A DNA stretch of 4,595 bases, taken from IMG/VR virus record IMGVR_UViG_2695420564_000008. One strand, given 5' to 3'. Positions within the stretch are counted from its first letter, which is position 1. Each line of letters starts with the position of its first letter. Origin of the DNA: a virus (Duplodnaviria > Heunggongvirae > Uroviricota > Caudoviricetes). The notes under the pieces are model-generated. The model was not told the origin of the DNA. It was given only the letters and a program-made list of their open reading frames with translations, and searched no databases. This document shows positions 1,626 to 4,595 of this stretch, piece by piece. Made by a program: the position numbers and the translations under genes.

Positions 1626-1640
1626 GCCTGAGTATCAGGC
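1626..1640 (+). other. Short palindrome GCCTGA-GTA-TCAGGC followed by a T-rich run (terminator-like or operator-like)
   Basis: Perfect 6-bp inverted repeat with a 3-nt loop, followed by TCTATATTTTT (1641-1651). A wider imperfect inverted repeat CTGATA (1610-1615) / TATCAG (1633-1638) surrounds it. It sits immediately upstream of the TTG at 1650. Confidence 0.3.
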
Positions 1641-1649
1641 TCTATATTT

Positions 1650-2387
1650 TTGAGCACAATAATTCACCAGTATGAAGGCGTACTCTATCAAGCGGGAAAC
1701 TTGCCACCAGACCACGGCAGCAAAGACATAGAAAACTTATTATTTGGTTCTATTATTTCTACTAGAGAAGATACCGAAAGATATCTAAATGAAGGTGTTT
1801 TCGATGGTATGAAGTGCTTAGCAAGTGGATTATGGCACGTTCCTAGTGATTTCATTGCTTCCCTTGCAGGGGTTAAGAGAGCCCCTGACATTCCACTCAT
1901 ATTCTCACCAGCATATATAAAAAAAGAACTAGATATCACATCAGGACGTTACTTTTTCTACGATTTTCGCGAACATGATACCACCGTATCGTCTGTGGAA
2001 GATTTGTATATATCAAGACCGTGGGTTGAATATATAGCTGAAAGCATGGATAAAAATCAGCCAATACCCAGCATACTCCATTTGGGTTCACACGATCTTT
2101 ATGAAAAGGAATTTAAAAACATAGAGCATGGAAATAGAGCACGACATAGCCTGAACCGTGAGAATAGCATTATGGCGTTGATTTATGTGAAACGGCACTA
2201 TCCGGAAGAGTGCAAAGGGAAAAACGGGAAAGAAACCAACGAAGCGTGGGCAAACGCTACGATAGACCACTGGCCACATGTGGGTGGCGATTATGATGAA
2301 CCATCTACAGATTATTTAAAGAAGATCATATCTGACATGGACAGATTGCCGGAAAAACGTACCACGGCAGGAAAGAAGAAATCATGA
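1650..2387 (+). CDS. Hypothetical protein, 245 aa from the TTG start (192 aa if the in-frame ATG at 1809 is used); AT-rich orphan cargo gene
   Basis: Long open frame ending at TGA 2385-2387 in an AT-rich segment, with no overlapping ORF of comparable length on either strand. The start is uncertain: TTG at 1650 has only a weak Shine-Dalgarno-like TCAGG upstream and an in-frame stop lies 6 codons upstream at 1629-1631; the first in-frame ATG is at 1809, preceded by GAAGGTG. No transmembrane segment, signal peptide or catalytic motif recognised by eye. Confidence 0.6.
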   Translation: MSTIIHQYEGVLYQAGNLPPDHGSKDIENLLFGSIISTREDTERYLNEGVFDGMKCLASGLWHVPSDFIASLAGVKRAPDIPLIFSPAYIKKELDITSGRYFFYDFREHDTTVSSVEDLYISRPWVEYIAESMDKNQPIPSILHLGSHDLYEKEFKNIEHGNRARHSLNRENSIMALIYVKRHYPEECKGKNGKETNEAWANATIDHWPHVGGDYDEPSTDYLKKIISDMDRLPEKRTTAGKKKS

Positions 2388-2388
2388 T

Positions 2389-2420
2389 AATAAAATTTAG
2401 TATCGTGACAATAAAATTTA
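2389..2420 (+). promoter_or_regulatory. Tandem direct repeat AATAAAATTTA (2389-2399 and 2410-2420) in the intergenic region upstream of the AlpA-family gene; candidate operator
   Basis: Two identical 11-mers with a 21-bp centre-to-centre spacing (two helical turns), in the 112-bp AT-rich gap between the 245-aa ORF and the AlpA-like gene. TTGAGC (2434-2439) and TTAAAT (2450-2455) hexamers are nearby but with poor spacing, so no promoter is asserted. Confidence 0.3.
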
Positions 2421-2499
2421 CTGTAATTCACTTTTGAGCATGCACACCATTAAATACCCGTAACGAAGCAACAACTATCGCTAAGAGGTTACGGGAAGC

Positions 2500-2703
2500 A
2501 TGAACACCGACACGATTCCTACAAAAGGCTATATCAGACGCTTTCGCCTGGCTGAATTGCTGGGCGTTAGTGTATCCACCATCGACCGTAAAGTAAGAAA
2601 CGGTTCACTACCACGTCCGGTAAAGCTGGGAGAAAAAATAACTGCGTTTGATGCGGTTGAGATTCACAACTGGCTGGCAGAACGCCGCGGGAAGGTGGCC
2701 TGA
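2500..2703 (+). CDS. AlpA-family helix-turn-helix transcriptional regulator (prophage or island regulatory, excisionase-like)
   Basis: 67-aa ORF with ATG at 2500 preceded by AAGAGG/GGGAAG. The translation RLAELLGVSVSTIDRKVRNGSLPRPVKLGEKITAFDAVEIHNWLAERR has the arrangement I associate with AlpA / Phage_AlpA HTH proteins. Its TGA stop (2701-2703) overlaps the next ATG by one base (TGATG). Confidence 0.85.
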   Translation: MNTDTIPTKGYIRRFRLAELLGVSVSTIDRKVRNGSLPRPVKLGEKITAFDAVEIHNWLAERRGKVA

Positions 2704-3134
2704 TGGAAAAGAAAAACCGCCCATTACAGGCGGCTAATTCAGATACTCGCGTATCTGATGTTACGCCCCTTACAAAATCCCTTCAAGCACCAAAGCGCAC
2801 ACCGAAAAAGCATCGTGCCAGAGTCTATATGCTGCGTACTGGTATAGAGGGATGGACAGAAAATGACATTCTTCGCTACTGCCGTCTGTCTTCTGGTCGT
2901 AACTATGCAACAGAGTTAGAACGCCAGCTTGGAATCACTCTGGAGCGTATCGACGAAAAGAATCCTGATGGTATCGGAACACACCTTCGCTACCGTTTCT
3001 CCTGCCGCGGTGATGTTCTGAAAGTGATCACTCATATTAACCATCTTGCGAACATAAATGATCACAACGGACTTTCTCAGCAGGAAATTGCCGACATTCT
3101 GAAACTCTACCCGGACGCGTTTAACGCCGCCTAA
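2703..3134 (+). CDS. Hypothetical protein, 143 aa, basic N-terminal region; translationally coupled to the AlpA-like gene
   Basis: ATG at 2703 overlaps the upstream stop; TAA at 3132-3134. Lys/Arg-rich N-terminus (PKRTPKKHRAR). No family recognised from memory. Confidence 0.7.
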   Translation: MEKKNRPLQAANSDTRVSDVTPLTKSLQAPKRTPKKHRARVYMLRTGIEGWTENDILRYCRLSSGRNYATELERQLGITLERIDEKNPDGIGTHLRYRFSCRGDVLKVITHINHLANINDHNGLSQQEIADILKLYPDAFNAA

Positions 3135-3146
3135 CGGAGACTGAAA

Positions 3147-3980
3147 ATGAACATCGAAAAAAGCAGATTAATTTCTGAGGCCGCCCCTCATCTGAACGCC
3201 TCTCTGGGCACAATTAACGGTAATGAATTTGCCGCAATTGTCCCGGTTATTCCTGGTCACATCGGTGGGCGTGAAACCAATATTGTTAGCGCAAAAGCGT
3301 TACACAAAGCGTTGGGCGTGGGAAAAGACTTCTCTACATGGATCACTGATCGCATCTCTGAATATGACTTCACCATTGGGCACGATTACTCAGTCCATAA
3401 AACAATTTCCCCAAATTTGGGGAAAAGCCCGAATGGCGCGGCTTACAGCAAGATTAAGCAGTCTGGCAGACCCGGCAAAGACTATCTGTTAAGTGTCGGA
3501 ATGGCGAAAGAACTGGCAATGATCGAACGCAATGATCAGGGTCGCGCTATCCGTCGTTATTTCATCCAGTGCGAGGAAGAATTACAGCGTAGCGTGCCTG
3601 AAATCGCCGCCCGCTATCGTCGCCAGCTAAAAGCCCGTATCAGTGCCGCAAACAACTTTAAGCCAATGTGCGATGCGCTGAATATGGCCCGTGCCGAGCA
3701 GGGGAAAACGACGCAGCAACACCACTACACAAACGAGAGCAATATGATTTCTCGTATCGTTCTTGGAGGGCTAACTGCTAAGCAGTGGGCGCGGATAAAT
3801 GGCTATTCTGGCGAACCTCGCGACCATATGAACGCAGAACAGCTTGAGCACCTCTCATATCTCGAAAGCACCAATATCACGTTAATTGATATGGGCATGG
3901 AATATGAGCAGCGCAAAGGAGAACTCACCCGCCTGTCGCAACGCTGGCTCGCCAAGCGTCTGGAGGCGGTCCATGTTTAA
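3147..3980 (+). CDS. Phage antirepressor-like protein with an N-terminal AntA-type domain
   Basis: 277-aa ORF with ATG at 3147 and GGAG 7 nt upstream. The N-terminal region (ALHKALGVGKDFSTWITDRISEYDFTIGHDY ... DYLLSVGMAKELAMIERNDQGRAIRRYFIQCEEEL) matches the signature I recall for AntA/AntB antirepressor N-terminal domains. I cannot assign the C-terminal half. Confidence 0.85.
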   Translation: MNIEKSRLISEAAPHLNASLGTINGNEFAAIVPVIPGHIGGRETNIVSAKALHKALGVGKDFSTWITDRISEYDFTIGHDYSVHKTISPNLGKSPNGAAYSKIKQSGRPGKDYLLSVGMAKELAMIERNDQGRAIRRYFIQCEEELQRSVPEIAARYRRQLKARISAANNFKPMCDALNMARAEQGKTTQQHHYTNESNMISRIVLGGLTAKQWARINGYSGEPRDHMNAEQLEHLSYLESTNITLIDMGMEYEQRKGELTRLSQRWLAKRLEAVHV

Positions 3981-4143
3981 GCCGACAGGAACACCACAAC
4001 CTCAAAAACGCTACAAAGATGCCCACGGAGCACTCGTTACTGTCGAAAGCGTGTCTCACAACCGAGTGACGTTTTATCGCGACGGGTATCAATCGCCATG
4101 CGTACAACCGCTGGCGCGCTTCATGAAGGAGTTCTCTCTTTAG
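3973..4143 (+). CDS. Small hypothetical protein (56 aa), translationally coupled to the antirepressor-like gene
   Basis: ATG at 3973-3975 overlaps the upstream TAA (ATGTTTAA arrangement), with GGAGG 5 nt upstream; TAG at 4141-4143. The ORF track extends this frame back to an ATG at 3886 (85 aa), which would overlap the upstream gene by 95 nt; the coupled start is more parsimonious. No family recognised. Confidence 0.5.
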   Translation: MFKPTGTPQPQKRYKDAHGALVTVESVSHNRVTFYRDGYQSPCVQPLARFMKEFSL

Positions 4144-4240
4144 TCACGCTCACATTACGCGACCAATACTAACAAAACATTAACACTATCTGGCAAAATT
4201 TTGTTCTAAACTTGATCTCAGCGAAATGGCTGCGCCTGAA

Positions 4241-4269
4241 TTGTGATAAAAATCACATTTTTATCACAA
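4241..4269. promoter_or_regulatory. Perfect 12-bp inverted repeat TTGTGATAAAAA-TCACA-TTTTTATCACAA with an embedded CRP-like site TGTGA-N6-TCACA (4242-4257)
   Basis: Directly readable: left arm 4241-4252, spacer TCACA 4253-4257, right arm 4258-4269. The nested TGTGATAAAAATCACA fits the CRP half-site consensus with a 6-bp spacer. It lies about 200 bp upstream of the gapA start. Confidence 0.5.
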
Positions 4270-4285
4270 CTGCCCTTTAAAATTC

Positions 4286-4298
4286 GGGGCGCCGCCCC
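4286..4298. other. GC-rich palindrome GGGGCG-C-CGCCCC (short hairpin or protein-binding site)
   Basis: Near-perfect 13-bp palindrome. On the minus strand it is followed by GAATTTTAAA, giving a weak terminator-like appearance; no T-run follows on the plus strand. Function unclear. Confidence 0.25.
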
Positions 4299-4393
4299 CA
4301 TGTGGTCTCAAGCCCAAAGGAAGAGTGAGGCGAGTCAGTCGCATAATGCTTAGGCACAGGATTGATTTGTCGCAATGATTGACACGATTCCGC

Positions 4394-4421
4394 TTGACGC
4401 TGCGTAAGGTTTTTGTAATTT
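4394..4421 (+). promoter_or_regulatory. Probable gapA proximal promoter: -35 TTGACG (4394-4399), 16-bp spacer, extended -10 TGTAATTT (4414-4421)
   Basis: Hexamers and spacing read directly; a second TTGACA lies at 4379-4384. Consistent with my recollection that gapA has a strong extended -10 promoter, but not verified against the published start site. Confidence 0.55.
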
Positions 4422-4452
4422 TACAGGCAACCTTTTATTCACTAACAAATAG

Positions 4453-4595
<143 letters not shown>

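Follow-up and report, generated by a model that had tools for sequence, protein, structure and literature searches.

A conserved pair of 21-bp dyad units upstream of alpA, candidate operator sites in an EcCIMP1-like satellite island

Background

What are the short repeats that lie just 5' of an alpA-like gene in a satellite-derived piece of DNA, and what might bind them? In the available text of PMC6092414 and PMC11773190, alpA is silent without a helper phage in related PICIs, its promoter (PalpA) is helper-induced and positively autoregulated in Gram-negative PICIs, and the gene acts as a helper-induced, autoactivated master switch in EcCICFT073 and EcCIMP1. Helper-dependent excision and transfer are shown for EcCIMP1 with phage Kapi1 in the available part of PMC11773190. 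The available part of PMC6092414 describes the alpA inducer as "under study" and leaves the existence of a repressor unclear, and neither the inducer of PalpA nor its cis sites are identified in the available text of the two papers.

The DNA analysed here is a viral record of 4,595 nucleotides, referred to at its full length as the window. A first-pass annotation had pointed to two copies of an 11-bp sequence in front of its alpA-like gene. A regulator site at this place is biologically reasonable because PalpA is both helper-induced and autoregulated in related PICIs. Our best reading, which we regard as evenly poised between right and wrong, is that the repeats serve a dimeric regulator as paired operator-type sites at the alpA promoter of an EcCIMP1-like satellite island.

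Island fragment and its genes

The window is a mosaic. Positions 1-83 are a CAG/CAA-rich stretch; 84-1548 hold oppA'-oppB-oppC' at ~90% identity to E. coli, with a break in oppC near codon 57; the 81 nt of 1549-1629 have no match in E. coli; 1630-4134 are an island piece whose two ends fall within genes; and from about 4133 to 4595 there follow the upstream region and start of gapA, 95.5% identical to E. coli. These parts are contiguous in none of 5426 complete E. coli genomes, and the window may have arisen as a chimera or through misassembly, or may come from a heavily rearranged relative. The gapA upstream region includes a perfect 13-nt inverted repeat at 4241-4269 (TTGTGATAAAAAT/ATTTTTATCACAA), which contains TGTGA-N6-TCACA, a sequence similar to the CRP-site consensus.

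The island piece (1630-4134, 2505 bp) is 100% identical to a piece of the E. coli 042 island adjoining yicC. The gene order in 042 is integrase, X (281 aa), alpA-like HTH, 143-aa protein, AntA/AntB, DUF4222, Ash and others, and a TOPRIM/DUF927 primase. Both this parent island and that of E. coli MP1 have the composition by which we recognise an EcCIMP1-like PICI, with int, alpA, antirepressor, Ash and primase genes whose order is conserved, and no structural or lysis genes. The window holds only X'-alpA-143aa-antA-DUF4222'; int, the 5' end of X and the genes past DUF4222 are absent. The genes of the fragment are as follows.

1630-2387, + strand: gene X, 281 aa, WP_000735991.1 in E. coli 042; the first 29 codons are missing and the 3' end carries unit 1 of the repeat
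2500-2703, + strand: alpA-like gene, 67 aa, Phage_AlpA / excisionase-type HTH; product identical to WP_001090781.1 of E. coli 042
2703-3134, + strand: ORF in the island fragment for a 143-aa hypothetical protein
3147-3980, + strand: ORF in the island fragment for an AntA/AntB antirepressor-family protein
3973 onward, + strand: DUF4222 protein; the 3' end is replaced after 4134

X belongs to an uncharacterised family that occupies the int-alpA slot. The 042-type protein has no family in Pfam, NCBIfam, PADLOC or PHROGs, and neither a Foldseek search with the full low-confidence model (pLDDT 59) nor a sequence-profile search of the PDB gave a match; a weak PADLOC match to the X of UMNK88 was the sole family match obtained. 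Elsewhere in the fragment, a perfect 20-bp palindrome, TTTCCCCAAATTTGGGGAAA, lies at 3406-3425 within the antA-family gene. Downstream of the island primase, the 042 locus (L001, 21069-25727) carries a DUF2824 gene and genes for phage DNA ejection proteins, which are of note since EcCIMP1, a related island, has the temperate phage Kapi1 as its helper.

The repeat array

The 11-mer AATAAAATTTA is present at 2389-2399 and 2410-2420, 21 bp from start to start, just as had been reported at first, and it has no further exact match in the window. The similarity extends beyond it: a repeat search of the window aligned 19-nt copies at 2381-2399 and 2402-2420 (17/19 identical), and Tandem Repeats Finder returned a period of 21, 1.9 copies, 89% matches and a score of 66. 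The description as tandem 11-bp repeats was correct in that the 11-mers are repeated but imprecise in extent, since the true repeat consists of two tandem 21-bp units in which the 11-mers (unit positions 5-15) are the cores. The repeat exceeds chance. When 2300-2500 was shuffled 5000 times with dinucleotides preserved, an exact non-homopolymer 11-mer recurred within 40 nt in 6 cases; when the whole window was shuffled 1000 times, this happened in 27. The two units, of which the first directly adjoins the second, are as follows.

2385-2405, no strand assigned: unit 1, TGATAATAAAATTTAGTATCG; contains the 11-mer at 2389-2399 and opens with the stop codon (TGA) of X; imperfect palindrome, 7/9 arm pairs
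2406-2426, no strand assigned: unit 2, TGACAATAAAATTTACTGTAA; contains the 11-mer at 2410-2420 and adjoins a TTCACT box; 7/9 arm pairs

The stop codon of X (TGA, 2385-2387) is followed by a gap of 112 nt before the alpA-like ATG (2500). The repeat falls here, its 11-mers spanning 80-111 nt 5' of the ATG, and the location originally given, between the upstream ORF and the alpA-like gene, stands. Across 26.5 kb of the E. coli 042 locus the motif has no second copy beyond the array.

The minus strand of the array includes a promoter-like match, TTGTCA-16-TATCAT (2411 to 2384; 10/12 to consensus), facing the 3' end of X. Its hexamers vary among relatives, and we set it aside as a by-product of the unit sequence.

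Dyad symmetry of the units

Within each unit the sequence reads as an imperfect palindrome, with the family consensus TGAtAnTAA-www-TTAnTnTCA, that is, 9-bp arms around a 3-bp A/T centre. In the window and its relatives 6-9 of 9 arm positions pair per unit, compared with a mean of 2.8 in composition shuffles, of which 0.3% reach at least 7 pairs. In an alignment of eight sequences 85% of the cells pair, compared with 24-55% in controls with a slid partner. Compensatory changes occur in two pairs, positions 6/16 of each unit, a count matched by 48 of 500 shuffles; the covariation signal is modest because the X family comprises only 10 clusters and ~6 independent lineages. Dyad symmetry within each site, a property expected of paired operators, is therefore present in both units.

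With such symmetry, a dimer that recognises palindromes is a likelier binder than a monomer that recognises 11-bp direct repeats. The units are also head-to-tail direct repeats in helical phase (period 21 bp), the arrangement typical of AlpA/Xis sites, yet each is palindromic. The initial proposal of phased direct repeats for a cooperative regulator is partly supported: the same-face spacing of 21 bp is kept in relatives, save in three lineages in which unit 2 has 20 nt and a centre 1 bp shorter, but the repeated elements are palindromes. A rigid dimer might be intolerant of the shorter centre.

Conservation among X-family lineages

To follow the array in relatives, the X-alpA intervals were taken from all X relatives in the databases (10 protein clusters with 37-100% amino acid identity, from E. 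coli, Shigella, Leclercia, Enterobacter hormaechei and metagenomes). The array is at a fixed position in 10 of 10 X-homologue lineages. Unit 2 is the best conserved unit and intact in every lineage; in one lineage (L090) the left arm of unit 1, only half of that unit, has decayed beside an intact unit 2. The concern raised beforehand, that the repeats might be missing from homologous islands, is removed by their retention throughout the X family.

When the intervals are anchored on the alpA leader they have a common layout: unit 1 of 21 nt, unit 2 of 21 or 20 nt, a TTCAC-type box, an unconserved spacer of 17 nt, TTAAAT or TTTAAT, 1 nt, and then CCCGTAAC with the remaining leader. The distances from the array to the TTCAC box and to the CCCGTAAC leader are the same in the window, 042, L019/L020 (X identity 56-62%), and L021, L022, L023, L024-26, L018 and L028 (X identity 37-41%). 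As examples of divergence, the units are TGATAGTAAATTTTACTATCA (1) and CGATAGTAAAAAATACGATCA (2) in L019, and TGATACTAAAAATTAGTTTCA (1) and TGATACTAATTTTTAGTGTCA (2) in L021. Averaged over pairs among six lineages, identity is 0.73 in unit 1 and 0.70 in unit 2, compared with 0.38 in the spacer; the TTCAC box stands at 0.71, the TTAAAT box at 0.91 and the leader arm at 0.96. Sequence and position relative to the putative promoter are therefore both kept in diverged relatives, as in an operator pair, with unit 2 always adjoining the TTCAC box.

In the lineages with an X of 281 or 282 aa, unit 1 is non-coding, while in those with an X of 312 aa it encodes the C-terminal residues of X (DTKN/DTKK and the stop). 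An earlier stop codon in L028 makes unit 1 non-coding with its sequence unchanged. Because unit 1 is kept whether coding or non-coding, the constraint acts on nucleic acid and not on protein. A lineage-specific duplication, with relatives carrying one unit, was considered and dropped once anchoring on the leader showed that the 312-aa lineages also have a second unit, within the 3' part of the X coding sequence.

The array could be a functionless neutral relic, left when slippage long ago duplicated 21 bp at the 3' end of X together with its stop codon. An in-frame TGA opens both units (2385, 2406), as duplication of a stop region predicts, and the decayed arm in L090 is the kind of change that a relic would undergo. 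We consider this reading very improbable, since the units remain 70-73% identical where the spacer has fallen to 38% and X to as little as 37% amino acid identity, and since the dyad symmetry has been retained.

A motif scan of IMG/VR yielded 60 matches, mostly single and chance-like, in A+T-rich viruses, and no phage operator array. The matches include one L019-type island and one probable Fur box by a ferritin-like gene.

Candidate alpA promoter

Unit 2 ends exactly where the conserved TTCAC box starts, and this box is the first of two that may form the alpA promoter.

2427-2432, + strand: candidate -35 box, TTCACT; conserved at a fixed position, with TTCACT, TTCACA, TTCCTT and TTTCTT in relatives
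2450-2455, + strand: putative -10 box, TTAAAT, 17 nt past TTCACT; TTTAAT in some relatives

Two conserved hexamer-like boxes on either side of an unconserved 17-nt spacer are the signature of a promoter, from which we infer that of alpA. The gap had been put forward as the place that must hold the promoter of the AlpA-Ant operon. The boxes and their spacing favour this, and most plausibly the gap does hold the alpA promoter, but a consensus scan called no promoter on the + strand, and the hexamers TTAAAT and TTTAAT are both without the highly conserved A at -11 (hexamer position 2). In some lineages the -35 box is a poor one (TTCCTT, TTTCTT). Such weak -35 boxes would fit an activator-dependent promoter, and a weak, activator-dependent promoter is consistent with the published behaviour of the alpA promoter in related PICIs. 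If the assignment is right, transcription would start near 2462, and the unit centres (2416 and 2395) would fall near -46 and -67 and face the same side of the helix.

This placement bears on the idea that the units have no specific binder, and that in-phase AAAATTT cores every 21 bp instead make the A+T-rich DNA intrinsically bent, serving as an UP-like element or nucleating H-NS-type silencing of foreign DNA. The centres of all units are AnTn-type tracts in helical phase, relative to the candidate promoter they would span about -40 to -75, and the DNA is horizontally acquired. The bases that are conserved, though, lie mainly in the arms (TGA.A.TAA / TTA.T.TCA), and the centres vary among AAA, AAT, ATT and TTT; arms that are kept around variable centres are the reverse of what a pure A-tract would predict. 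The UP-element consensus (nnAAAWWTWTTTTnnnAAAnnn), which spans -59 to -38 and so would fit by position only if the proposed promoter is right, has few matches to 2403-2424 when compared by eye, and the likeness to an UP element fails on sequence. We judge bending as the sole function to be improbable.

Relation of the array to AlpA

The first-pass annotation had also suggested that the AlpA-like protein might autoregulate its operon through the repeats. Proteins of the Xis/AlpA/Cox winged-helix type often bind arrays of direct repeats, and such a protein could bind the phased units cooperatively at its own promoter; the repeats do sit 5' of the candidate -35 box. For EcCICFT073 and EcCIMP1, the available text of PMC6092414 and PMC11773190 describes activation of the alpA promoter by AlpA itself. 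Against this, the repeat and the alpA allele occur independently of each other. UMNK88 has an identical AlpA (WP_001090781.1) with another X allele, an unrelated upstream module and no repeat, whereas EC21Z-137 has a different AlpA allele (WP_032236940.1) behind an identical repeat. Many E. coli islands match the window at 98-99% identity from 2457 onward only, and of 351 matching E. coli records just 38 reach 80% coverage or more when the query includes the repeat. A search of genome contigs with AlpA gave only 6 loci; among the loci so found, those of Leclercia, Enterobacter adelaidei, Citrobacter, Tatumella and Erwinia (AlpA 65-94% identical) are without the repeat. An autoregulatory AlpA/Xis site should occur and vary together with its AlpA allele; in the sequences compared, the 21-bp units do not co-segregate with the alpA allele. 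AlpA is disfavoured for this reason and appears unlikely as the binder of the units, and there is little probability left for autoregulation through them; the absence of a second island copy of the motif also speaks against it.

A second element behaves in the way that the units do not.

2457-2495, + strand: leader inverted repeat, CCCGTAAC (2457-2464) / GTTACGGG (2488-2495), with a 23-nt loop

The Shine-Dalgarno sequence AAGAGG (2483-2488) closes the loop, its last G being the first base of the right arm, and the repeat ends 4 nt 5' of the alpA ATG. Over 11 lineages 98.8% of the cells pair, with three compensatory pairs, and none of 500 shuffles reaches the observed values. Arm variants are CCCCTAAC/GTTAGGGG in Tatumella and Erwinia and TCTCGTAAC/GTTACGAGA in E. 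adelaidei; this repeat co-varies with alpA. Judged by these alignments, the element that travels with alpA is the leader inverted repeat, unlike the 21-bp units. It may act either as a DNA operator or as an RNA hairpin in longer transcripts; a start at ~2462 would leave its left arm untranscribed. Rfam recognised no RNA family over 2300-2720, save a sub-threshold chance match inside alpA.

An RNA-level role of the units

The units could instead act as RNA: folded into one hairpin or two where the X or int-X transcript ends, they would serve as a weak terminator, an insulator or a 3' stabiliser that keeps read-through from alpA. Sister modules with other X alleles have canonical GC-rich intrinsic terminators at the equivalent place, directly 5' of the promoter region. 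The terminator of UMNK88 (L009, ~2935-2990) is GGCACAGTA-TCAT-TACTGTGCC-TTTTT (-14.3 kcal/mol), and that of PSS-13 (L010, ~2940-2990) is GGTACTG-CAAAATTA-CAGTACC-TTTT (-8.8 kcal/mol). In the 312-aa lineages units 1 and 2 are mutually complementary over a 17-bp stem (the 90-mer of L021 folds at -27.2 kcal/mol), and several mismatches of unit 2 are G-U compatible on the sense strand and, if counted as pairs, bring 6-7 up to 9 of 9.

In the window itself, however, the hairpins of the two units have energies of only -0.7 and 0.0 kcal/mol and no U tract, and a terminator scan of 2250-2600 found no terminator-like site; the stable G+C-rich stem and U tract of an intrinsic terminator are both wanting. 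The 131-nt region has a folding z of -1.6. Base identity is kept beyond what pairing would need, and independent mismatch events divide into wobble and non-wobble at ~4:6 (a hand tally) without strand bias. We therefore regard an RNA-level role as unlikely, though it is the alternative that we take most seriously. What weighs for operator sites is that the units of the window form almost no RNA hairpin and yet keep the consensus half-sites.

The UMNK88 and PSS-13 islands carry an alpA that is the same as that of the 042 type or nearly so. The right arms of their terminators have TTAC(T/A)GT in common with unit 2 of the window.

Candidate binders and consequences

Under the operator reading, one dimeric DNA-binding protein would occupy each 21-bp unit and the two dimers would contact each other across the 21-bp spacing. 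Occupancy of the units would decide whether the weak alpA promoter fires, and firing would start the excision-replication programme of the island. Our candidates for the binder are, in order of preference, a factor encoded by the helper phage, host Fur, and the product of gene X. The helper-phage factor is preferred because helper-dependent induction of the alpA promoter has been published for related islands, and it would be the best fit to the literature.

A bolder proposal, which we offer as speculative and rather unlikely, is that X and its private pair of 21-bp operators, the variable head between int and alpA, act as the module by which Gram-negative satellites of this class sense their helper. 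In one version X would be a Stl-like repressor that occupies both units until a protein of the helper phage removes it; in another the units would be docking sites for a helper-encoded inducer of alpA. If this were true, exchange of the head before the same alpA, as between 042 and UMNK88, would re-tune the island to a different helper.

Operator-type sites are an ordinary kind of element, and their value here is as a lead on helper induction. A conserved 42-bp dyad array beside the putative alpA promoter provides a concrete DNA bait in the search for the regulator. The finding of the same AlpA behind different upstream heads suggests a route by which helper or signal specificity may change, and if the binder were Fur or another host factor, activation of the island would be tied to host physiology. 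What is new is a candidate cis site at the alpA promoter, where the available text of PMC6092414 and PMC11773190 maps none.

Comparison with known systems

A+T-rich palindromic DNA can resemble many operators by chance, and likenesses are to be read with this in mind. Compared by eye with the units, the sites of LexA, IHF, TyrR, Fis and H-NS and the operators of P22 Arc, 434 and lambda do not fit in both sequence and spacing. The Arc operator has TGATAG...TACTAT in common with unit 1 of L019, with the spacing off by 1 bp, which we treat as a lead only. Arm-type sites of the integrase were rejected as well, the array being ~2.2 kb from attL at yicC in 042.

The units are Fur-box-like in sequence, and Fur sites are commonly clustered side by side. 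This lead came from an IMG/VR contig (L056) in which TGATAATAATTTTTATTATCA, at 8407-8427 and ~170 bp upstream of a ferritin-like gene with an integrase adjoining, fits the unit pattern exactly and the Fur-box consensus at 15/19 positions by hand count. Among the positions that the 21-bp Fur box specifies, the unit consensus departs from it only at the symmetric pair 8/14. Against the 19-bp Fur box GATAATGATAATCATTATC (PMC2189734), unit 1 matches at 14/19, unit 2 at 11/19 and relatives at 9-13/19; a match of at least 14/19 arises in 0.08% of shuffles. The differences are that the inner hexamers of the units are poor (AAAATT compared with GATAAT) without a complete 7-1-7 or 6-1-6 motif, that the context is unrelated to iron, and that the units lie 5' of the core promoter rather than on it.

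Among published islands, EcCICFT073 and EcCIMP1 have the same gene order of int, accessory slot, alpA and antirepressor-Ash-primase. EcCIMP1 of E. coli MP1 has an identical DUF4222 protein (WP_000476150.1) and keeps the 143-aa/antA/DUF4222/ash order and the sizes of the 143-aa and AntA proteins, but its AlpA is only 36% identical and the region upstream of its alpA is unrelated. In the SaPIs of Gram-positive bacteria, stl is transcribed divergently and encodes a proven DNA-binding repressor. The likeness would be that of a variable island gene next to int, together with operators that gate a lytic operon and a helper phage as inducer, whereas X is co-directional and its putative recognition helix is acidic.

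In lambda, OR1 and OR2 are tandem palindromic operators to which CI dimers bind cooperatively. The units resemble them as two adjacent dyad sites of ~17-21 bp, about two helical turns apart, by or over the -35 of a promoter that chooses between quiescence and a lytic-type programme. Their sequence is unrelated, the sites in the window lie 5' of the putative -35 and not over the core, and the locus has neither a divergent promoter nor an identified cognate repressor gene. In P4, Cox boxes upstream of PLL allow an Xis-like protein of the helper P2 to trans-activate the satellite. Cox boxes are short direct repeats as compared with the 21-bp palindromes described here, and the helper would be P22-like or another phage, not P2. 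The parallel lies in repeated sites upstream of a satellite promoter, through which a small winged-helix protein of the helper could switch the satellite on, and a scheme of this kind is consistent with the published helper-dependent induction of the alpA promoter.
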